The translations under genes were made by a program, and so were the position numbers. From a virus (lineage: Duplodnaviria; Heunggongvirae; Uroviricota; Caudoviricetes), in IMG/VR virus record IMGVR_UViG_2703718841_000004: a stretch of 19,015 nt of DNA; one strand, 5' to 3'. The first letter of the stretch is position 1; the number at the start of each line of letters is the position of its first letter. This document shows, piece by piece, positions 3,535 through 17,597 of this stretch. The notes under the pieces are model-generated. The model did no database searches, had not been told where the DNA came from, and saw nothing but the letters and a program-made list of their open reading frames with translations.

Positions 3535-3621
3535 GTAAAAAAACAACACCCCGTCAAAGGCACCCGCAGATACCTTTTGTGTGGTGTTATCTGATGTGAT
3601 GTGCGCCGGACGTGGCGCGGA

Positions 3622-3648
3622 TATAAAAAAGGCCCGCCGCAGCGAGCC
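3622..3648 (-). terminator. Candidate intrinsic terminator downstream of the AraC-family gene (minus strand)
   Basis: Imperfect stem GGCCCGC/GCGAGCC with loop CGCA (3631-3648); on the minus strand it is followed by TTTTTTATAT (complement of 3621-3630). Confidence 0.4.
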
Positions 3649-3673
3649 TGTTTTCAATGAGTGCAAAATTCAA

Positions 3674-4417
3674 TTATTCTTGAGTAACACTTAAACTCAT
3701 CTCATTGAATGCAGCCATCCTGTAACCTGCCGGTGTAACACCAAAATAACTCCTGAATACGCTGATAAAATAAGATGTAAAATTATAGCCACACTGAGCA
3801 GCGATTCTGTTGATGGCGCAACGAGATTGATTCAACAGCATTGCTGCCATTCTCATTCTCTCTGTAAGCAACAACTCACTGAAACAGGTGCCTTCTTCTT
3901 TCAGTCTTTTTTTTAACAAACTTTCACTGATACATAACCGCGAAGACACATCTCTCAGAGTCCAGTTTGCTGCAATGTCCGTACGAAACAATGCACTAAG
4001 CCTGTCACTAATATTGCCAATACACGCGGTCAGAAACGACGAAAACATTTTCTCTGATGAGAAAAACGCCAGACACGAAAAGGAAAGCATTTCCGCTAAA
4101 TTGTCCGTATGAATCTTTTCCTCACAAAGATAATCAATCAGGATGCCCATCAATTCTGCCTTGGGAAAACTCACGCAAAGATATCGTGGTATTTGCCGGA
4201 CTAAAACTACATCCTGTTTTTCGTCTCCACACAACAGGTAACGGATAATTGTCGATTCACTGAGACTTATTCGCCGAAAACATTCCGAAAAGGGCAATAA
4301 CGATCCAGCTCCCCCCCTGACAAGAAGTGCACTACCACTTTCCAGAGAGAGCTCTTTTCCTTCAAAGAGCACAACAAACGGGGAATGAACAAAAACAACA
4401 GAACAAGCTTCATTCAT
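3674..4417 (-). CDS. AraC/XylS-family transcriptional regulator, AppY/GadX-like (prophage cargo)
   Basis: 247 aa from the first ATG (MNEACSVVFVH...). The C-terminal dual HTH ...ISESLLKKRLKEEGTCFSELLLTERMRMAAMLLNQSRCAINRIAAQCGYNFTSYFISVFRSYFGVTPAGYR is typical of AraC-family proteins, and the N-terminal CSVVF and overall layout resemble AppY of DLP12 as I recall it. The gene looks AT-rich by eye. Confidence 0.8.
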   Translation of the reverse strand: MNEACSVVFVHSPFVVLFEGKELSLESGSALLVRGGAGSLLPFSECFRRISLSESTIIRYLLCGDEKQDVVLVRQIPRYLCVSFPKAELMGILIDYLCEEKIHTDNLAEMLSFSCLAFFSSEKMFSSFLTACIGNISDRLSALFRTDIAANWTLRDVSSRLCISESLLKKRLKEEGTCFSELLLTERMRMAAMLLNQSRCAINRIAAQCGYNFTSYFISVFRSYFGVTPAGYRMAAFNEMSLSVTQE

Positions 4418-4537
4418 ATCAATTGCCCTGACATTACTGGTCACAAGATAAGTATATATCGATTTACAAAAATACAAGCCGAAAGACCAGTATTAGCAAC
4501 CACCAGCGCGTTTAACGTCCTGTACCGTTTTTCAGGC

Positions 4538-4563
4538 ATAAAAAACCCGCTCAGTGGCGGGTT
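4538..4563 (-). terminator. Intrinsic terminator downstream of the ORF6N gene (minus strand)
   Basis: Stem AACCCGC/GCGGGTT (4544-4550 / 4557-4563) with loop TCAGTG; on the minus strand it is followed by TTTTTAT. Confidence 0.5.
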
Positions 4564-4639
4564 TAAGCTGTTTGGCGTAGTAACCACTCTTAACAGGATA
4601 TTCAACTTTTTACGATCGTAAAGCGTTCGGGGAAAATTT

Positions 4640-5128
4640 TTAAAACCGTTCCAGAGTGCATACCATCGCATCGGCGGGTAGTTTTTCCGTGAAGTCGACC
4701 TGACCGTGTTTATCGAAGTGGATCAGTAATGCGCATCCATCATTTTGGGTTGGGGTGTTTTGTGCTGCTGGTGGTTGTTTTTGGCTGAAATAACAGTCTT
4801 CCAGTTTTTCGAACACTTCCCACGCCTGATCGGTTTCCAGCATTTTGGTGTGACGGGCTGCTCCGCGTTCTGTCCAGAGGATGAGGTGCTTTGTACGCGG
4901 TGCAACTAAGTTACTTTGAGTAACCTTGTTCTTAAATTCCCGCAACTCAGCCCCTTCCAATTTGAAGTAGTGTTTCCCACAAACAAAACGCTCGGCATTG
5001 CGTGTATAGTTCACTTTGATGTTATTAGTTTCGGTGCCATAAAGTTGTGCCAAAAGCTCGGTAGTAATGACAGGGATTTGGTTATGGGTGATCGGGGAAA
5101 GAGTTTCAACTGAGATTTGAATAGCCAT
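4640..5128 (-). CDS. ORF6N-domain (KilA-N/antirepressor-like N-terminal domain) phage protein
   Basis: 162 aa with ATG at 5128 and an RBS AAGGA. The segment ITTELLAQLYGTETNNIKVNYTRNAERFVCGKHYFKLEGAELREFKNK...HLILWTERGAARHTKMLETDQAWEVFEKLED matches the ORF6N pattern from memory. Confidence 0.6.
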   Translation of the reverse strand: MAIQISVETLSPITHNQIPVITTELLAQLYGTETNNIKVNYTRNAERFVCGKHYFKLEGAELREFKNKVTQSNLVAPRTKHLILWTERGAARHTKMLETDQAWEVFEKLEDCYFSQKQPPAAQNTPTQNDGCALLIHFDKHGQVDFTEKLPADAMVCTLERF

Positions 5129-5284
5129 AGGATGATCCTTTTTCTATGTGAATCATCACCACTGCTGACGCCAATCAGTATGGTGGTGAACTGTGCAGGG
5201 TTGGCGTAACCGGGAAAAAGGAACCGGCGCGGATCGCTCCGCCCCCACACAGCCCACCATTGAGATGTGACAGTGCAAACGACA

Positions 5285-8448: not shown

Positions 8449-10260
8449 ATGAAGCTACAGCAATTTAATATTAAAAATTACAAGTCGATAAAAGATGAAA
8501 TAGAAGTATATATCGATGATATAGTTGTGCTAATTGGTCCAAATAACTCTGGAAAGTCAACAATATTAGATGCGTATGAAAAGTTTGCATCTTTAGGATC
8601 AGCAAAAGGCCTGACTGCTCATGATTTTTATAACTCAGATATATCTATACCAATTGAAATGTGCGGAATTTTCACTGATATCACTGATGATGATATTCGT
8701 ACATTAGGGGGAGAGAAATGGTTTTATAAAGATGATGCTCTTGACAGAAGAAATATGGCAAGAAAGTATGGGGGAGATTGGGAGAAAAATAATACCCCAT
8801 TGGAAAGCAAACTCTATTATTGTGTTAAATGGGTTTGGTCACATCCAGAAAAAGCAGCCCAAAAACAATCCTATGGCCTTGATGATGCCTCTGGCAAACG
8901 CATATTTATTGATGGGGGCTCTGGGGGACTTGACACACTACTACAAAGTCGAGTTCCTCAACCAATAAGAATAAGCCCAGATAAATCCATGGATGAAACT
9001 AAAAAAATTATCATAAGTTTCTTAAAGGAAGATGCAAAAGATGAGTTACTGAAAACAGGGGAAAGTAAAGCTGATATAATACAGAAAATACAAGAGTTGA
9101 CAGACACTCTTATGAAAGATTCCAAATCAAAAATCGATGATCTTCTACAGCAGGTCTCCAAATCATCATCATCTGTTTTTCCTGGGCTAGAACTGGAATT
9201 AAACATACTTTCCAAGGATCCCGTAGATGCGGATGTTATGGTTTCAGAATCTAACCTTACAGTGAAAATGGATGGGATAAATAGCTCTCTTCTCGAGAAC
9301 CAAGGTCACGGTGTTCGCCGCTCCGTTTTATGGTCTGCTTTGCAAATTTTGACTCACGAATCTCATGCACGAGATAAAATAAAAAAAGCGAAAGGTAAGC
9401 CTATCTCTGTTGAGAAAAAACAATATATTTTATTGATTGATGAGCCTGAATCATTTCTTCACCCTCCTATAATTAGAAGTGCGAGGGACTCGCTTTATGA
9501 TTTTGCAGCAAACAATGATAACTGGCAGGTGATGGCTACAACACACTCCCCTGTATTCATAGACTTATCCAAGAAGCACACGACTATAATTAGGATAGAA
9601 AAAGACAAATCGCTAAATAAAACAATATCTACAGATGAACTATCTTTTTCTGAAGAGGAAAAAGATAATATGAAAATGATAAGATTATGCAACCCAATGG
9701 TTAATGAGTTTTTCTTTTACGACAATATAATATTAGTTGAAGGCCCAACTGAAAAAATCGTCATTAACAAAATATGTGATATTGTCGGAGTTGATTATCA
9801 TATCATTGACTGTTTAGGAAAAGGGAATATAAAAACATTTGCTAAAATATTAAATCAATTTAACGTTGAGTATATAGCAGTACATGACTCCGACATTCCA
9901 AAATGCTTAAAGCAAGGAAGCGTTTCAGGTAATGGGGCATGGGGTTCAAATGTATCCATAATGAACGAATGCTCTAAAAGTAAAAAACCAATGGTATTTA
10001 TTCAAATACCTCATTTCGAAGGACTGTTTTTTAAAAATTTCAATCCATCAAACAAAGTTGAGACAGTAACATCAGTTCTATCTAATAATTTAACACCAGA
10101 ATACAAAGCAATATTTGATACATATAGCAGAATTTTAAACAAAGATCCATCTGTTTTTATCAGCTCCAACGAAAAAATGATAGACATGTATCATGCATTT
10201 TATGCCAGTAATAAAAACCAAATTGAGACGCTAAAGAATCCTGAAATCTGGATCCTTTAA
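8449..10260 (+). CDS. OLD-family nuclease-type protein: N-terminal ABC/SMC-like ATPase with coiled-coil insert plus C-terminal Toprim domain (class 1 OLD-like or fused PARIS-like); candidate anti-phage defence gene
   Basis: 603 aa. Walker A GPNNSGKST (aa 30-38, nt 8536-8562), coiled-coil insert about aa 180-240, Walker B ILLIDEPE (aa 327-334, nt 9427-9450), H-loop ATTHSP (aa 363-368), Toprim glutamate in ILVEGPTE (E431, nt 9739-9741), conserved Gly in CLGKG, and DxD in VHDSDIP (aa 480-482, nt 9886-9894). RBS AAGGA 8 nt upstream and a clean terminator downstream. It is plus-strand in a minus-strand neighbourhood and visibly AT-rich. Confidence 0.75.
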   Translation: MKLQQFNIKNYKSIKDEIEVYIDDIVVLIGPNNSGKSTILDAYEKFASLGSAKGLTAHDFYNSDISIPIEMCGIFTDITDDDIRTLGGEKWFYKDDALDRRNMARKYGGDWEKNNTPLESKLYYCVKWVWSHPEKAAQKQSYGLDDASGKRIFIDGGSGGLDTLLQSRVPQPIRISPDKSMDETKKIIISFLKEDAKDELLKTGESKADIIQKIQELTDTLMKDSKSKIDDLLQQVSKSSSSVFPGLELELNILSKDPVDADVMVSESNLTVKMDGINSSLLENQGHGVRRSVLWSALQILTHESHARDKIKKAKGKPISVEKKQYILLIDEPESFLHPPIIRSARDSLYDFAANNDNWQVMATTHSPVFIDLSKKHTTIIRIEKDKSLNKTISTDELSFSEEEKDNMKMIRLCNPMVNEFFFYDNIILVEGPTEKIVINKICDIVGVDYHIIDCLGKGNIKTFAKILNQFNVEYIAVHDSDIPKCLKQGSVSGNGAWGSNVSIMNECSKSKKPMVFIQIPHFEGLFFKNFNPSNKVETVTSVLSNNLTPEYKAIFDTYSRILNKDPSVFISSNEKMIDMYHAFYASNKNQIETLKNPEIWIL

Positions 10261-11979: not shown

Positions 11980-12050
11980 ACTCACCTCTTCTGATACCGA
12001 ATCTTTTTACTCACGAGTTGCCGGAAGCGATTCGATATGACTATTGTCAG

Positions 12051-12476
12051 TCAATGTACTGCCACAGCATTTCCTTCCGGGCCACCACGGTTCATCTGAT
12101 TGAAACCGGCGATTGCCACTGCGACAAAATCATCAGCGTCTCTCACCAGTCGCTCCCGCGTCTCCACCAGCTCCCGAAAATAAGCTGAACTGTGGCTGCG
12201 CATTCTGGCCACCAGCAAAGGTGGCATTGCCTTTTCGATCGCTGGTAACAACGCCTGAATTTTTTCAACTGCATCAGGGGTGTCTTTCTCTATCCAGCGG
12301 AAAATTTTCTGGGTATTGCGAGCCAGGGCTTCCGGATGGCTGTCGTCGTACAGTTCAGGAAACGTCATACCCAACTCAAAATAAGCCTGGGTTATTCCAG
12401 CTGCCGGAACTTTTTCGCCATCAGGACGCGCCCAGGCATTCATCGCCATGCGGATGTGTTCATGCTTGATTTTCAT
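12051..12476 (-). CDS. YdaT-like protein (CII-like regulator domain)
   Basis: 141 aa starting MKIKHEHI..., as recalled for Rac YdaT. Its ATG overlaps the upstream gene's stop (ATGA), and it follows the Cro-like gene. Confidence 0.7.
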   Translation of the reverse strand: MKIKHEHIRMAMNAWARPDGEKVPAAGITQAYFELGMTFPELYDDSHPEALARNTQKIFRWIEKDTPDAVEKIQALLPAIEKAMPPLLVARMRSHSSAYFRELVETRERLVRDADDFVAVAIAGFNQMNRGGPEGNAVAVH

Positions 12477-12727
12477 GAATCAACTCCCATCAGCTTTTTC
12501 GTAGTAGTTTTATTCCTGCCAATAGTTAAAATTGCATCGGCAGAAAATAATCCGTTTGATGCAAGAGCGATTTTTTCAGCGTAATTTGTTTCGCCGGTAT
12601 ATTCTGTGCGAGGCAATTTTCCGTTATCCATCCATTTATAGATTGCTCTTTGGCTGACACCACAAACGTCGGCCACAACAGCAACGCGAACAGTTTTGAT
12701 TACATCTTCAAGTGTTTTCTGGTTCAT
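12473..12727 (-). CDS. Cro-like HTH regulator (YdaS-type)
   Basis: 84 aa from ATG 12727 (MNQKTLEDVIKTVRVAVVADVCGVSQRAIYKWMDNGKLP...), RBS GAGGGTG. It is divergent from the repressor gene. Confidence 0.65.
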   Translation of the reverse strand: MNQKTLEDVIKTVRVAVVADVCGVSQRAIYKWMDNGKLPRTEYTGETNYAEKIALASNGLFSADAILTIGRNKTTTKKLMGVDS

Positions 12728-12806
12728 ATCACCCTCACAATGTGAACTTTGAGTACATGCTATAACAGAACTGACAGTACATTCAAGAGCGAATATCATT
12801 GAACTT
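12728..12806. promoter_or_regulatory. Divergent operator/promoter region between the Cro-like gene and the repressor (OR-like)
   Basis: 79-bp intergenic region with two direct AGTACAT motifs (12752-12758, 12776-12782) and the palindrome TCACA-A-TGTGA (12735-12745) over the Cro-like gene RBS region. The repressor ATG has no obvious RBS. Confidence 0.45.
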
Positions 12807-13226
12807 ATGGTTCATGAAGATAAAGCGCGTAAAGAGTTCGCCAGTAGGCTTGCGCTAGCCTGTGAAAACGCTGGTTATGAACAACATGGAAGGCAGGCAG
12901 AAATTGCCCGTCGAATGAAATTAACACCAAAAGCGGTTAGCAAATGGTTTAATGGCGAAACAATTCCTCGCCGGGAGAAATTAAGGGAATTAGCAACACT
13001 AATAGGAACAACACCAACCTATCTTTTGGGAGAGGATACAGAAGAAAGTGGACAGGTACGTTTCTATCAGGAGTTAAATCCAAGACAAAAAATCATCATT
13101 GACCTTCTGGACGAGCTCCCTGACAGTGAGACAGATGAACTTTTAAAAACTCTTGAAGAGAAAAAACAGAAGTACAATGCAATTTACGAAGAGTTAGCAC
13201 GAAAGAAAAAACAAAAAGCCTCTTAA
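12807..13226 (+). CDS. Prophage repressor, XRE-family HTH (DicA/RacR/CI-like)
   Basis: 139 aa; N-terminal HTH (...FASRLALACENAGYEQHGRQAEIARRMKLTPKAVSKWFNGETIP...) and an acidic/helical C-terminus. It is divergent from the Cro-like gene. Confidence 0.8.
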   Translation: MVHEDKARKEFASRLALACENAGYEQHGRQAEIARRMKLTPKAVSKWFNGETIPRREKLRELATLIGTTPTYLLGEDTEESGQVRFYQELNPRQKIIIDLLDELPDSETDELLKTLEEKKQKYNAIYEELARKKKQKAS

Positions 13227-13299
13227 ACCAGCATAAATCCGGTAGCGCCTTCCTCCGGGTTTGTGCTTCACTTTATCCCATCTCATTTTTTTACACACA

Positions 13300-13350
13300 A
13301 AATGTACTAAAAGTACTTTACAACAATGAACGCAAAGTACATTATATACC
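13300..13350 (+). promoter_or_regulatory. OL/PL-like operator-promoter region for the early-left operon
   Basis: ATGTACT (13302-13308), the 10-bp palindrome AAAGTACTTT (13310-13319) and AGTACAT (13336-13342) share the motif found in the divergent region. A candidate -35 TTACAA (13318-13323) and -10 ATTATA (13341-13346) overlap them. Confidence 0.4.
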
Positions 13351-13523
13351 TGCCACCCACCCCGCCCCACAGAATGCAGGGCAATACTTCGAGTTACCAG
13401 GCAGTGGTCAGGGGTTAAGTAGCCAGCCCGAGGCGTAAGAACATGACGGCAGGGTTCAACTTTAATAACTATGCAGCAGGTTTTTGTTCCGCTACCCCGG
13501 CGTTAAGGGGAAATGAGGTCAAC

Positions 13524-13679
13524 ATGGATACTATCGATCTTGGCAACAACGAATCTCTGGTGTACGGCGTGTTTCCCAACCAGGACGGCACATTCACCGC
13601 GATGACGTATACCAAAAGCAAAACGTTTAAAACCGAAAATGGTGCCCGTCGCTGGCTGGAAAGAAACTCAGGTGAGTGA
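13524..13679 (+). CDS. ydfA: DUF1391 small protein (YdfA-like)
   Basis: 51 aa from ATG 13524 (MDTIDLGNNESLVYGVFPNQDGTFTAMTYTKSKTFKTENGARRWLERNSGE), RBS GAGGT. It is the first gene of the early-left operon, as in Qin (recalled). Confidence 0.65.
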   Translation: MDTIDLGNNESLVYGVFPNQDGTFTAMTYTKSKTFKTENGARRWLERNSGE

Positions 13680-13680
13680 T

Positions 13681-13809
13681 ATGGATTTCGACACAATCAT
13701 GAAAAAGGCTTACGAAGAGTACTTCGAAGGCCTTGCCGAAGGCGAAGAGGCTCTCAGCTTCAGTGAGTTTAAACAGGCGCTTTCCAGTTCGACAAAATCT
13801 ATCGACTAA
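13681..13809 (+). CDS. Small hypothetical protein (42 aa; position and length match ydfB of Qin)
   Basis: ATG 13681 lies 1 nt after the ydfA stop; translation MDFDTIMKKAYEEYFEGLAEGEEALSFSEFKQALSSSTKSID. It is below the ORF-track size cutoff. Confidence 0.5.
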   Translation: MDFDTIMKKAYEEYFEGLAEGEEALSFSEFKQALSSSTKSID

Positions 13810-13820
13810 CGGGGTTAAAG

Positions 13821-13979
13821 ATGGAATTTAAAGATTTACCTCCAGACACTCAGAAAATCGCCGCAGAAACACTGAAATCTCTCATTTTGAACGGGGAGAC
13901 AGAAAAGGTAGATCCAGCTAAAAAACTGGCTCAAGAAATCAGAGAAGCCTTTATTGCTCTTTATCAGTCTTCTCCATAG
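13821..13979 (+). CDS. Small hypothetical protein (52 aa)
   Basis: ATG 13821; translation MEFKDLPPDTQKIAAETLKSLILNGETEKVDPAKKLAQEIREAFIALYQSSP; colinear with the operon. Confidence 0.45.
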   Translation: MEFKDLPPDTQKIAAETLKSLILNGETEKVDPAKKLAQEIREAFIALYQSSP

Positions 13980-14136
13980 CGGCTTGTTTTTCTTCTTTTA
14001 ATATATTGCGAATTGTAATAACTGAATTAGCCGCCTCTGAAGGGGATGACATTTTGCCAGCCCGAATTAACTCAACTGTTAAGTTCAAAGCTGCAACAGA
14101 TGGATAGGTAAATGGGTTAATTAACTTGTCTGACAT
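13951..14136 (-). CDS. Small hypothetical protein encoded antisense to the early-left operon (61 aa)
   Basis: ATG 14136 is preceded by a near-ideal RBS GGAGGA with 4-nt spacing (MSDKLINPFTYPSVAALNLTVELIRAGK...). Its 3' end overlaps the plus-strand ORF 13821..13979 by 29 nt. Confidence 0.35.
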   Translation of the reverse strand: MSDKLINPFTYPSVAALNLTVELIRAGKMSSPSEAANSVITIRNILKEEKQAAMEKTDKEQ

Positions 14137-14620
14137 TTTATCCTCCATTGAGGTTCTGGGTTAAAAATGGAGACCAACATGCTGCCACATGTGGTCGTGC
14201 GCCGGACACGGATAAGAATCCGGCACTGACAGTTTACTGAAAGGATATATCCCTGAAAAGTCAGGGCATAACGCGAAAGCGCACGGCGAAGTTCGTCTCA
14301 CTGTACGGTGTCGTTAAATTTAATTCGACCGTGCGCTTCCGGTTGTGGCACTCCGCGAAATGGCGCGGCGGTACGTATGGCGGGGTTATTCCTTCCCCCT
14401 GTTGAGGACACCGGGTTGTCAGGTTGACCATACGCCTGAGTGACAACCCCGCTGCAACACCCCATGTTGATTACCTTTTCATTGCTGGCTGATGTCCGTC
14501 CTTTTTAAAGTGAATTTTGTGATGCGGTGAATGCGGCTCAGCGCACGCGGAACAGTTAAAAAGGCCAGTTGACTTCCGTATTGGTTCTTATGGGTGGGTT
14601 CTCTGTATCCGGCGTTAATT

Positions 14621-14634
14621 GTTAACTAGTTAAC
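14621..14634. promoter_or_regulatory. Perfect 14-bp palindrome GTTAACTAGTTAAC upstream of dicB (candidate protein-binding site)
   Basis: Exact reverse-complement symmetry, 56 bp upstream of the dicB ATG, followed by the tandem 7-mers AGGCACC AGGCACC (14644-14657). Confidence 0.3.
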
Positions 14635-14689
14635 GTCACCTGGAGGCACCAGGCACCGCATCACAAAATTCATTGTTGAGGACGCGATA

Positions 14690-14872
14690 ATGGAAACGTT
14701 ATTACCAAACGTCAATACGTCTGAAGGTTGTTTTGAAATTGGTGTCAGAATCAGTAACCCTGTATTTACTGAAGATGCCATTAATAAGAGAAAACACGAA
14801 CGGGAGCTATTAAATCAAATATGCATTGTTTCAATGCTGGCCCGTTTACGCCTGATGCAAAAAGGACGCTGA
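14690..14872 (+). CDS. dicB: Cell-division inhibitor DicB
   Basis: 60 aa, METLLPNVNTSEGCFEIGVRISNPVFTEDAINKRKHERELLNQICIVSMLARLRLMQKGR, near-identical to K-12 DicB as recalled. RBS GAGGA. Confidence 0.85.
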   Translation: METLLPNVNTSEGCFEIGVRISNPVFTEDAINKRKHERELLNQICIVSMLARLRLMQKGR

Positions 14873-14874
14873 CA

Positions 14875-15078
14875 ATGAATACAGCATTTGCACTCGTTCT
14901 GACAGTTTTTCTTAATACAGGCGAACCAGTCGATCTTGTTATTGGTATACATGACTCAATGAAAGAATGCATGGCTGCCGCAGCGGAACAGAAAATTCCC
15001 GGCAACTGTTATCCGGTTGATAAAGTTATTCGCATGGACAATAACGAAATCCCGGCAGGACTTAAAACAGCACCGTAA
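14875..15078 (+). CDS. ydfD: YdfD-like small membrane lysis/toxic protein (DUF1482)
   Basis: 67 aa from ATG 14875 (MNTAFALVLTVFLNTGEPVDLVIGIHDSMKECMAAAAEQKIPGNCYPVDKVIRMDNNEIPAGLKTAP), starting 2 nt after the dicB stop; RBS AAGGA. Confidence 0.7.
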   Translation: MNTAFALVLTVFLNTGEPVDLVIGIHDSMKECMAAAAEQKIPGNCYPVDKVIRMDNNEIPAGLKTAP

Positions 15079-15158
15079 TTAATATCCGGTTTCATTTTTA
15101 TATGCCAGCAATGGCAGGGATTTGTTCACCCTTAAATCTGTAATGAGGTTAAAACAAA

Positions 15159-17597
15159 ATGAGTAAAGTCTTTATTTGCGCCGCCATTCCGGACGAACAG
15201 GCAATAAAGGAAGAAGGTGCAGTCGCTGTAGCCACTGCCATTGAAGCCGGCGACGAACGCCGCGCCCGTGCCAAATTTACCTGGCAATTCCTGGAGCAAT
15301 ATCCGGCTGCTCAGGACTGCGCTTATAAATTTCTTGTTTGCGAGGATAAACCCGGCATGCCCCGCCCTGCCATCGACTCCTGGGATACCGAATATATGCT
15401 GGAAAACCGCTGGGATGAAGAGTCAGCCTCTTTTGTCCCGATCGAACCAGAATCCGATCCGATGAACGTCAATTTTGACAAGCTGTCCCTTGAAGTACAG
15501 AACGCGGTCCTGGTTAAGTTCGGTACATGTGAAAACATCACCGTTGATATGGTGATTAGTGCACAGGAATTGTTGCAGGAGGACATGGCAACATTCGACG
15601 GGCATATCGTTGAGGCATTGATGAAAATGCCTGAAGTTAACGTCATGTATTCAGAACTAAAGCTGTTCGCCATCGGGTGGGTTAAACATAAATGTAAGCC
15701 GGGTGCAAAATGGCCTGAGATCCAGACAGAATTACGCACCTGGAAAAAACGTCGCGAAGCCGAACGCAAAGAAACCGGGAAATACACGTCTGTTGTTGAT
15801 CTTGCCCGCGCCAGAGTCAACCGGCAGCACACTGAAAACTCAGCAGGAAAAATCAACCCCGCCACTGCCGCCATTCGTCGCGAATACAAGCAGACATGGA
15901 AAACGCTGGATGAAGAACTGGCCTACGCTCTGTGGCCTGGCGATATTAATGCCGGAAACATTGACGGCAGCATCCATCGCTGGGCAAAAAATGAAGTTAT
16001 CGACAAAGATCGCGAAGACTGGAAGCGCATTTCCGCATCAATGCGCAAACAACCCGATGCCGTCCGCTACGACCGTCAGACTATTTTTGGCCTTGTCCGT
16101 GAGCGTCCGATCGACATTCACAAAGATCCCGTGGCACTGAACAAATACATCACTGAATACCTGGCGACAAAGGGCGTGTTTGAGGATGAAGAAACAGACC
16201 AGAACACTGCTGATATTCTCCAGCCGTCAGCAGCACAAACTGATGCAGTGGAAACTGAAGTATCTGATACCCAAAAAAATGAAAGCACGCTGGAAACTGA
16301 ACCATCTGTAGAGCGTGAGGGGCCGTTCTACTTCCTTTTCACCGATAAGGATGGCGAAAAATATGGTCGTGCAAACAAACTTTCTGGTCTGAATAAGGCG
16401 CTGGCTGCAGGGGCTACTGAAATCACGAAAGAAGAATATTTTGCCCGCAAAAACGGCACATACTCAGGTTCACAACAAAATACTGGTGCATCTGACACGA
16501 TCGCACAACCAGAGCCGGTAAAAGTTACCGCTGACGAAGTAAACAAAATTATGCAGGCAGCCAATATCAGCCAGCCTGACGCCAATAAGTTGCTTGCTGT
16601 ATCACGTGGCGAATTTGTTGCAGGGATTAGCGACCCGAATGATCCGAAATGGGTGAAGGGGATTGAAACCCGCGATTCAGTGAATCAGAACCAGAAAGAA
16701 ACGGAACAGAACGACCAGAAAGCGGAACAAAACAGCCCAAATGCGCAACAGGAGCCGGAAAAAGCCTGCACCGCCTGCGGTCAGACCAGCGGCGGCAACT
16801 GCCCTGATTGTGGTGCGGTGATGGGCGACGCAACGTATCAGGAAACCTTTAATGAAGAAAATCTGGATGAATCTCAGGAAAAAGATCCGGAGGAAATGGA
16901 AGGCGCTGAACATCCACACAAGGAGAATGCTGGCAGCTATCAGGACCACGCCAGCGATAGCGAAACTGGCGAGACGGCAGATCCCTTAATTGCGGTGAAC
17001 GGTCATCACGTTATCACATCCACCAGCAGAGTGTGGTACCACCTGATGATCGACCTTGAAACGATGGGTAAAAAAAGTAATGCCCCCATCGTGGTTATTG
17101 GTGCTGTGTTCTTCGATCCGCAGACCGGGGAAATCGGGCCAACATTTTATATCGTTATCAGCCTGGTTGACGCTATGGACACGGGTGCTGTTCCTGATGG
17201 TTCCACCATCGAATGGTGGCTTGCTCAGTCCAGCGAAGCCAGATCTGCAATTTTAGTTGATCAGGTAAAACTGGTTGACGCTCTTATTCAATTTCGGGAA
17301 TTCATCAATGAGTACTCGGATGAAGAATTCGTTCAGGTATGGGGCAATGGTGCAACTTTCGACAACACTATTTTACGAACCTCGTACGAACGCCTGAACA
17401 TCCCCTGCCCGTGGCGTTACTACAACGATCGCGATGTACGTACAATCGTTGAACTGGGAAAAACTATCGGCTTCGATGCCAGAACAGTTATTCTATTTGA
17501 AGGCGTGCGCCACCATGCGCTGGATGATGCCCGTCACCAGGCGAAATACGTTACAGCCACGATACAAAAACTGATCCCGAATCAGGCTGATTTTTAA
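15159..17597 (+). CDS. Large early-left exonuclease: RecE-like N-terminal/central region fused to a C-terminal DnaQ-like DEDDh 3'-5' exonuclease domain, with an internal Cys4 zinc ribbon
   Basis: 812 aa, RBS GAGGT. The C-terminus has Exo I MIDLETMG, Exo II WGNGATFDNTIL and Exo III HHALDDARHQAKY. A CxxC...CxxC motif (CTACGQTSGGNCPDCG) and acidic low-complexity linkers are present. The segment LLAVSRGEFVAGISDPNDPKWVKGIETRD resembles the RecE central region as recalled. Confidence 0.8.
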   Translation: MSKVFICAAIPDEQAIKEEGAVAVATAIEAGDERRARAKFTWQFLEQYPAAQDCAYKFLVCEDKPGMPRPAIDSWDTEYMLENRWDEESASFVPIEPESDPMNVNFDKLSLEVQNAVLVKFGTCENITVDMVISAQELLQEDMATFDGHIVEALMKMPEVNVMYSELKLFAIGWVKHKCKPGAKWPEIQTELRTWKKRREAERKETGKYTSVVDLARARVNRQHTENSAGKINPATAAIRREYKQTWKTLDEELAYALWPGDINAGNIDGSIHRWAKNEVIDKDREDWKRISASMRKQPDAVRYDRQTIFGLVRERPIDIHKDPVALNKYITEYLATKGVFEDEETDQNTADILQPSAAQTDAVETEVSDTQKNESTLETEPSVEREGPFYFLFTDKDGEKYGRANKLSGLNKALAAGATEITKEEYFARKNGTYSGSQQNTGASDTIAQPEPVKVTADEVNKIMQAANISQPDANKLLAVSRGEFVAGISDPNDPKWVKGIETRDSVNQNQKETEQNDQKAEQNSPNAQQEPEKACTACGQTSGGNCPDCGAVMGDATYQETFNEENLDESQEKDPEEMEGAEHPHKENAGSYQDHASDSETGETADPLIAVNGHHVITSTSRVWYHLMIDLETMGKKSNAPIVVIGAVFFDPQTGEIGPTFYIVISLVDAMDTGAVPDGSTIEWWLAQSSEARSAILVDQVKLVDALIQFREFINEYSDEEFVQVWGNGATFDNTILRTSYERLNIPCPWRYYNDRDVRTIVELGKTIGFDARTVILFEGVRHHALDDARHQAKYVTATIQKLIPNQADF

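Follow-up and report, generated by a model that had tools for sequence, protein, structure and literature searches.

The stretch of DNA analysed here, referred to as the window throughout (19,015 nucleotides), belongs to a lambdoid E. coli prophage. Positions 12300-13700 share 99.9% identity with a chromosomal prophage adjoining ompW, and the identity of the window to Tritos, a plaque-forming phage of E. coli strain LF82, is ~98%. At least 80% of the 1.4-kb stretch carrying the switch is present in 530 of 5426 complete E. coli genomes (~10%). Near the switch, the minus-strand gene order is replisome organiser, ydaT and cro-like, and the plus strand carries, in this order, the repressor gene, ydfA, ydfB, dicB, ydfD and genes for an exonuclease, xis and int. 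Domain matches to HTH_3 and HTH_17 were obtained for the divergent gene pair. Homology to the DNA of the K-12 prophage Qin resumes at 13486, upstream of ydfA. Coordinates of genes, predicted operators and promoter elements are collected in Table 1.

Table 1 Genes and predicted control elements of the immunity region. Positions refer to the window; bit scores are those of the matrix built from HK022 operators only.
Feature	Position	Strand	Remarks
ydaT, CII-like regulator, second gene of the rightward (lambda-sense) early operon	12051..12476	-	Pfam YdaT_toxin, 6e-10; PHROG 163 'CII-like transcriptional activator', 3.8e-45
YdaT recognition site TTGATT-N6-AATCAA, PRE-type control point	12466..12483		Junction of cro-like stop and ydaT start
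cro-like gene, 84 aa	12473..12727	-	HK022 Cro homology; RefSeq start identical
TCACAATGTGA palindrome over the cro-like ribosome binding site	12735..12745		Found in the window and near-identical copies
OR1, predicted operator GTGAACTTTGAGTACAT (GTGAACT-TTG-AGTACAT)	12742..12758		Over PR start region; 0 mismatches to dyad; 16.7 bits
PR -10, TATAGC, TGT just before	12759..12764	-	Placed by homology to HK022 pR -10 CATAAT
OR2, predicted operator CAGAACTGACAGTACAT (CAGAACT-GAC-AGTACAT)	12766..12782		Over PR spacer/-35, includes PRM -35; 14.6 bits
PRM -35, CTGACA	12771..12776	+	Promoter scan; equivalent of putative 933W pM -35
PR -35, TTGAAT	12781..12786	-	Position as HK022 pR -35 TTGACT; 16-bp spacer in both
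PRM -10, TATCAT	12794..12799	+	Promoter scan; 7 nt upstream of repressor ATG
OR3, predicted operator TTGAACTTATGGTTCAT (TTGAACT-TAT-GGTTCAT)	12799..12815		Putative autorepression site; top matrix match, 20.3 bits
Immunity repressor gene, 139 aa	12807..13226	+	HK022-type helix-turn-helix domain 1-77, flexible linker 78-86, DicA-type helical C-terminal domain 92-138
Stable hairpin just 3' of repressor stop codon	13230..13267	+	-19.2 kcal/mol, z -4.1
OL2, predicted operator ATGTACTAAAAGTACTT (ATGTACT-AAA-AGTACTT)	13302..13318		Abuts/overlaps PL -35; 18.3 bits
PL, TTTACA-17-CATTAT	13317..13345	+	Promoter scan; HK022 pL homology; would drive ydfA-ydfB-...-dicB-ydfD-exonuclease-xis-int
OL1, predicted operator ATGAACGCAAAGTACAT (ATGAACG-CAA-AGTACAT)	13326..13342		Over PL spacer and -10; 14.1 bits
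ydfA (DUF1391), first PL-operon gene	13525..13679	+	Annotation/domain match

Over 73 aa, 60% of residues are identical between HK022 Cro and the Cro-like protein (E 1e-33). The start of the latter at 12727 was chosen because this alignment begins at Met1 of the 84-aa form, and a 108-aa version starting at ATG 12799, as given in the Tritos record, was dropped. A Shine-Dalgarno sequence, CACCCTC, precedes the cro-like gene at 12730-36. At the opposite end of this gene, TTGATT-N6-AATCAA finds its sole zero-mismatch match in the window; the same motif has been footprinted in prophage CP-933P, where its position is the end of ydaS (PMC9986795). Downstream of the repressor stop codon, the hairpin has a stability equalled by none of 200 shuffles and a poor U tract, and is possibly a terminator or a 3'-end stabiliser. 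An Rfam scan of 12000-15200 at gathering thresholds returned no match, and a permissive scan of 13350-15200 returned only STnc100 at sub-threshold score, so that the repeats described below are not explained by structured RNA.

A 17-bp dyad at five predicted operators

The exact heptamer AGTACAT occurs six times in the 19-kb window, against 1.49 copies expected, and a count of six was reached in 1 of 200 shuffles. Four of the six copies fall inside the 623-bp region under study. An initial annotation of this DNA had described divergent Cro-like and repressor genes across a 79-bp region with two direct AGTACAT copies 24 bp apart, and both observations hold: the start codons at 12727 (minus strand) and 12807 enclose positions 12728-12806, and the copies lie at 12752-58 and 12776-82. 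The heptamer is, however, not the full unit it had been taken for. Every AGTACAT has a partner half-site 10 bp leftward, resulting in 17-bp dyads, and the left half-sites GTGAACT, CAGAACT and ATGAACG had been overlooked. AGTACAT is thus the right half of a dyad of the form RTGWACT-N3-AGTWCAY. In agreement with this, a repeat finder returned a repeated unit of 20-22 nt, not 7 nt, with a spacing of 24 bp.

The same pairing applies 3' of the repressor stop (13226), where ATGTACT (13302-08), AAAGTACTTT (13310-19) and AGTACAT (13336-42) are present as initially reported. Given that the AGTACAT copies have left partner half-sites, ATGTACT and AAAGTACTTT belong together and are the two halves of one operator, OL2, not separate elements. 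Half-sites on both sides of the repressor gene are real, but the earlier inventory had missed OR3, a dyad centred on the A of the repressor start codon. A dyad scan allowing 0-2 mismatches found the five sites and one other match in 19 kb. A dyad-like match at 12054-70 (3 mismatches) has only one good half-site and was taken as chance. Predicted operators are spaced by 24 bp (OR1-OR2), 33 bp (OR2-OR3) and 24 bp (OL2-OL1); OR1-3 overlap PRM and the homology-placed PR, and OL2 and OL1 overlie PL.

An independent view of these sites comes from phage HK022, whose operator and promoter annotation was taken from GenBank X16093. A scoring matrix was built from just the five operators annotated there, and its top five matches in the window are exactly OR1-3 and OL1-2, at 14.1-20.3 bits, followed by a next match of 10.3 bits. 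Five window sites score at least 12 bits where 0.37 would be expected; the OR3 score is inflated because HK022 oR3 differs by only 1 nt. The operator sequence, initially described as different from that of lambda, is hence not new. It is the HK022 operator sequence.

Related loci point in the same direction. Repressors with N-terminal domains 62-72% identical to that of the window repressor include 138-aa forms in Salmonella and 235-240-aa forms with an S24 peptidase domain in Klebsiella and Raoultella, and in their loci the same sites recur as a set of three, at -65, -41 and -8 relative to the repressor ATG. An OR1-type site at -65 is found in most relatives. In these loci the downstream pair with 24-bp spacing has been pushed behind inserted genes, which encode HigBA (Salmonella) or an AAA ATPase (Raoultella). 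A genome-wide scan recovered 32 loci, from Shigella to Haemophilus, Gallibacterium and Pseudomonas. The motif search in related prophages proposed in the initial annotation found the OR1-24-OR2-(32 to 34)-OR3 layout, as judged by inter-site spacings, kept in 25 of 31 evaluable loci from Enterobacterales, Pasteurellaceae and Pseudomonas, and, in 29 of 35 sequences, two OL sites spaced by 24 bp around a -35 of TTTACA/TTGACT and a -10 of CAT(T/A)AT; the loci have a common ancestry, so this conservation is not fully independent evidence. The OL pair of relatives lies 480-3100 bp from the repressor start, behind differing inserted genes.

A gap-free alignment of 20 OR regions showed conserved half-sites and promoter hexamers, while the OR1 central triplet, the inter-site spacers and the stretch from OR2 to the PRM -10 vary. 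The OR1 central triplet is also the sole OR-region difference between the window and Tritos, and the OR2 central bases CTGAnA are conserved in relatives. The operator sites go with repressors that have an HK022-type DNA-binding domain, irrespective of which C-terminal domain or Cro partner accompanies it. The two shorter palindromes behave differently. In relatives, AAAGTACTTT is replaced by TTGGTACTTT, TAGGTACTTT or TTTGTACTTT, so that the 10-bp palindrome is lost but the 17-bp dyad retained. The TCACA-A-TGTGA palindrome, TCACAATGTGA, does lie over the cro-like ribosome binding site as initially stated, but it is not conserved in diverged relatives, being missing from HK022, 933W and all 17 others aligned, and is probably incidental.

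Candidate promoters and the repressor protein

A promoter scan reported CTGACA-17-TATCAT at 12771-12799, the candidate promoter PRM of the repressor gene, as well as the PL hexamers. The latter correspond to the HK022 pL homologue, and the -35/-10 pair initially assigned to the early-left operon was thus correctly picked out. PR was not reported by the scan and its position is taken from HK022 homology only; its -10 is weak by consensus, with the final T missing. The number of promoter-scan matches was not above that of shuffles. Homology supports both PL and a leaderless PRM as candidates.

The absence of an obvious ribosome binding site at the repressor ATG, noted initially, was confirmed in that no Shine-Dalgarno-like purine run is found 5' of it. 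With TATCAT only 7 nt before the ATG, a leaderless mRNA is implied, and the repressor mRNA is probably leaderless. The earlier suggestion of such a transcript is well founded, as the -10-like hexamer at this distance is kept in the alignment of enteric relatives. In Pasteurellaceae relatives, OR3 directly follows the -10 and is in turn followed by a normal leader with a Shine-Dalgarno sequence. 5' RACE has revealed leaderless starts for lambda cI and the CP-933P repressor PaaR2 (PMC8630535). Because OR2 fully covers the PRM -35, OR2-bound repressor may either activate or repress PRM. For 933W, PRM activation by OR2-bound repressor has been reported (PMC5977221).

The DNA-binding domain of the repressor is 47-58% identical to that of HK022 CI and 51% identical to that of 933W CI. 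Its recognition helix, TPKAVSKWFNGE, is near-identical to that of HK022, TPKAISKWFNGE, and retains K42 and K46. In the 933W repressor, specific DNA binding is lost on substitution K46A, and K42 has been modelled as contacting a base. The alignment to HK022 CI stops near residue 100, and a domain search gave no Peptidase_S24 match in the 139-aa protein. Residues 81-139 resemble the C-terminal domain of DicA: BLASTP against DicA gave 29% identity over the full length (E 5e-15), and the C-terminal domain alone is 32% identical (E 8e-7). PHROG 5736 matches the repressor across its full length. The protein also has the features of DicA-type short, non-cleavable prophage repressors, i.e. a length in the range of ~135-150 aa, an HTH_3 domain, a helical C-terminal domain and the motif LSPxE..LLELF..LP..E. 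When the C-terminal 59 aa were searched against a database, near-identical fragments alone were recovered, and the DicA link therefore draws on the pairwise and PHROG comparisons.

In the AlphaFold model (mean pLDDT 83.5), a disordered linker (residues 78-86) joins the helix-turn-helix domain to a helical hairpin formed by residues 92-138. Solved structures, searched by sequence, gave only weak matches to the N-domains of P22 C2 and 434 repressor and no close relative. The same DicA-type C-terminal domain is found on 933W-like DNA-binding domains in Xenorhabdus and Arsenophonus. We tentatively suggest, while regarding it as somewhat doubtful, that the repressor is a natural chimera of a DNA-binding domain with HK022 specificity and a DicA-type helical oligomerisation domain, giving an SOS-blind switch that retains the full HK022 operator layout.

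Proposed switch and alternative explanations

Taken together, the region is very probably the immunity switch of a lambdoid E. coli prophage, with operators of the HK022/933W type built on the 17-bp dyad. Homology to experimentally studied switches and the roughly 30 related loci support the divergent switch, the shared operators, PL and the leaderless reading, and the lambda-like OR/OL logic proposed initially is correct by homology and conservation. Repressor dimers at OR1 and OR2 would shut PR and with it the cro-like gene, ydaT and the replication genes, and repressor at OL2 and OL1 would shut PL, from which ydfA through dicB, ydfD, exonuclease, xis and int would be transcribed. PRM would transcribe the repressor gene with the A of the ATG as start point, a coincidence from which the leaderless mRNA would follow. 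At high repressor levels, OR3, centred on the ATG, would turn PRM down. The Cro-like protein presumably competes for the same operators, and YdaT, acting at 12466-83, would take the CII role.

It appears very improbable that the 7-bp AGTACAT direct repeats are themselves the unit, with TCACAATGTGA as a Cro-specific operator and AAAGTACTTT as a separate palindromic operator. All three elements are indeed present and AGTACAT is enriched, but every relative, like the HK022 operators as annotated, has the left half-sites at a constant distance, and the 20-22 nt unit of the repeat finder contradicts one of 7 bp. The fate of the palindromes also argues against it, since relatives lose that of AAAGTACTTT yet keep the dyad, and diverged relatives lack TCACAATGTGA. 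We consider it highly improbable that the operators, though real, mainly serve the Cro-like protein or another regulator while the 139-aa protein acts elsewhere or, like DicA, on another target. Such a scheme would fit the DicA-like C-terminal domain of the repressor and the fact that lambdoid Cro proteins bind the same operators as the repressor. However, the 139-aa protein has the HK022 CI recognition helix and the sites follow this DNA-binding domain regardless of C-terminal domain or Cro partner. Further, the DicA operators TGTTAG...CTAACA are absent, with no counterpart in the control regions of the window.

Finally, the recurrence of the motif might be a chance likeness among AT-rich promoter sequences with no operator function, given that the sites overlap promoter hexamers and that the promoter-scan count does not exceed that of shuffles. 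The excess of high-scoring sites under the independent HK022 matrix, spacings identical to those of HK022 and conservation across three bacterial orders leave this with almost negligible probability.

Within the immunity switch favoured here, the repressor has no LexA-like peptidase domain, and thus the switch should not respond to RecA/SOS and would be SOS-insensitive. No LexA box of the form CTGT-N8-ACAG, a possible link between an antirepressor and SOS, matched in the window. Tritos is produced spontaneously, is able to form plaques and transcribes its CI gene in the lysogenic state; neither ciprofloxacin nor trimethoprim induced it, the latter slightly lowering production (PMC9928086). The non-induction of Tritos by ciprofloxacin is consistent with a repressor that has no RecA-sensitive peptidase domain.

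The feature is real but, apart from a repressor with a DicA-type C-terminal domain, an ordinary member of the HK022/933W immunity family, and the current understanding of lambdoid switches is unaltered. The analysis places operators and promoters to the base in a type of immunity common among E. coli prophages, including Tritos, an active phage of the Crohn's-associated strain LF82. Tritos-type immunity is now linked to the well-studied HK022 and 933W switches, with cross-immunity towards HK022-like phages and insensitivity to SOS-inducing antibiotics as predictions. If the chimera reading is true, prophages of this kind would confer HK022-type superinfection immunity and hold a division inhibitor of the DicB type under a control that does not yield to DNA damage. 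C-terminal domains of both S24 and DicA type occur with the 24/33/24 spacing, and it would then follow that promoter geometry, not domain-specific contacts, sets the spacing. The locus would serve as an example of a modular swap of the repressor C-terminal domain over an unchanged operator layout.

Relation to known immunity regions

The closest comparison is with HK022. At the DNA level, the window matches HK022 with 72% identity over cro-OR-cI(N) (12632-12967) and 80% over OL/PL (13286-13346). The HK022 operators GTGAACTTATGGTTCAT, CGGAACTGATAGTACAG, TTGAACTTATGGTTCAA, ATGTACTATTGGTACTT and ATGAACTTTAAGTACAT are each the positional counterpart of one window site, with ATGTACTATTGGTACTT corresponding to OL2 and oR3 differing from OR3 by a single nucleotide. 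In X16093, the oR sites are spaced by 33 and 24 bp with the third over the cI ATG, and two oL sites 24 bp apart flank pL; both arrangements recur in the window. OR1 lies 14 bp from the cro ATG in both. HK022 pL (TTTACA-17-CATCAT) and window PL share -35 and spacer at a homologous place, whereas pR (TTGACT-16-CATAAT) and window PR (TTGAAT-16-TATAGC) agree in spacer but differ in the -10. From the near-identical recognition helix and the operator consensus, the same immunity as HK022, that is cross-repression, is predicted.

The two regions differ in several other respects. HK022 CI contains an S24 autocleavage domain, in place of which the window repressor has a 55-aa helical DicA-type module. 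A third OL site of HK022, OL3, lies 53 bp upstream of its OL pair, and an additional operator lies 300 bp beyond OR; equivalents of OL3 and of the distal operator (~300 bp beyond OR) were sought in the window and neither was found. HK022 uses CII and pE where the window has YdaT and its site, and its PL drives nun, whereas window PL would drive ydfABC/dicB-type genes. Strong pairwise cooperativity of HK022 CI and OL-OR looping over about 560 bp are described in PMC8053113, which cites Carlson and Little 1993 for the HK022 immunity region. The C-terminal domain of the window repressor is unlike that of HK022 CI, so these two properties are not simply transferable.

The Shiga-toxin phage 933W, which has three OR and two OL operators, has a DNA-binding domain of the same family with K42 and K46 kept, although position 41 is Ser in 933W and Pro in the window repressor. 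The operator core G(A/T)AC is common to both, whereas the 933W half-sites are CGTACT-like and unlike those of the window. Operator spacings are 24 and 32 bp in 933W compared with 24 and 33 bp here, and in both cases the third OR site overlaps the repressor ATG. The putative pM of the 933W record has its -35, CTGAAA, inside oR2 and a -10 ending 7 nt before the cI ATG, the same arrangement as in the window. Like the window, 933W has two OL sites and no OL3 (PMC5977221). Its CI carries an S24 domain, which the window repressor does not have, and is reported to be non-cooperative.

The repressor of CP-933P, a cryptic prophage of E. coli O157:H7 (PaaR2/YdaS/YdaT), is CI-like, short and non-cleavable, and its mRNA is leaderless (PMC8630535); the window repressor is probably alike in these respects. 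In both prophages the repressor gene is flanked by operators and the logic is of the PRM/PR/PL kind, and YdaT, the CII equivalent of CP-933P, recognises TTGATT-N6-AATCAA where the cro-like gene ends (PMC9986795), the same position as in the window. However, the CP-933P operators are 18-bp palindromes of the GTTTAGTAA type, four of them in 97 bp, and are unlike the sites described here. The Cro-like proteins are also different, and the CP-933P repressor gene is followed by a paaA2-parE2 toxin-antitoxin pair, another difference from the window.

The remaining relationship is to Qin of K-12, whose DicA shares the C-terminal domain type of the window repressor at the full-length identity given above. 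The downstream operon of ydfA, ydfB, dicB and ydfD is the same, and Qin has the layout seen in the window, with operators between the divergent genes and again after the repressor gene, ahead of ydfA. In contrast, the DicA operators are of the TGTTAG...CTAACA type and differ from those of the window, and DicC is unrelated to the window's Cro-like protein.

Overlap of a predicted operator with the repressor start

OR3, the operator predicted at the start of the repressor gene, extends into the coding sequence itself, with its central triplet corresponding to the repressor ATG. All repressor homologues of the enteric relatives start with MVQ or MVH, whereas in the Pasteurellaceae relatives OR3 is found upstream of a normal leader and the repressors start with MITEEK. 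Based on this comparison of sequences, the N-terminal residues of the enteric repressors may be constrained by the operator. One related locus is found on a short contig labelled Streptomyces (NZ_JBEOWA010000103.1, 1026 bp) that carries an enterobacterial HK022-like immunity region, which is probably an assembly contamination.

A stable hairpin is located immediately 3' of the repressor stop codon (-19.2 kcal/mol, z -4.1). The U tract after it is poor, with a T7 run about 20 nt beyond. This hairpin may terminate the transcript of the repressor gene ahead of PL, or stabilise it.

Features of the window discussed in this section, with coordinates
Feature	Coordinates	Strand	Description
162-aa ORF	4640-5128	-	ORF6N (KilA-N/antirepressor-type) domain
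603-aa ORF	8449-10260	+	AAA_15/AAA_21 ATPase and OLD-like TOPRIM domains
YdaT (CII-like) recognition site	12466-12483		exact match to TTGATT-N6-AATCAA; across cro-like stop and ydaT start
PR -10	12759-12767	-	TATAGC, TGT just before
OR3 (predicted)	12799-12815		central triplet = repressor ATG; right half-site = codons 2-3 (GTT CAT)
Repressor 3' hairpin	13230-13267		
DicF small RNA position	14459-14499		
STnc100 match	14513-14667		Rfam, sub-threshold

Accessory genes and the DicF position

The 603-aa ORF is oriented opposite to its neighbouring genes, and no blastn match to this stretch was detected in the near-identical prophage copy. Its combination of ATPase and TOPRIM domains makes its product a likely defence nuclease. 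The 162-aa ORF6N protein, whose ORF is flanked by the Q antiterminator and a gene of the AraC family, could be the antirepressor acting on the repressor, which is predicted to be uncleavable; no LexA box was identified near this ORF.

Where the DicF small RNA would be expected, the flanking sequence agrees with that of K-12 and of the most similar E. coli copy. The DicF core has been swapped for a shorter divergent sequence with about 25 nt missing. Rfam gives no DicF match; its only match is a sub-threshold one to STnc100, located nearby.

Comparison with known immunity regions

In the Salmonella and Raoultella relatives, inserted genes separate the repressor gene from the OL/PL pair, specifically, a HigB/HigA pair in Salmonella (3553-4220 of that locus) and a 480-aa AAA ATPase in Raoultella (3808-5250 of that locus). 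The corresponding slot in lambda is filled by rexAB. HK022 and nearly all relatives carry CATAAT without a TG as the PR -10, in contrast to the window, where TATAGC together with the preceding TGT looks like an extended -10. The YdaT recognition site has a direct counterpart in CP-933P, the cryptic prophage of E. coli O157:H7, where the footprinted YdaT site OM is found in the same position.
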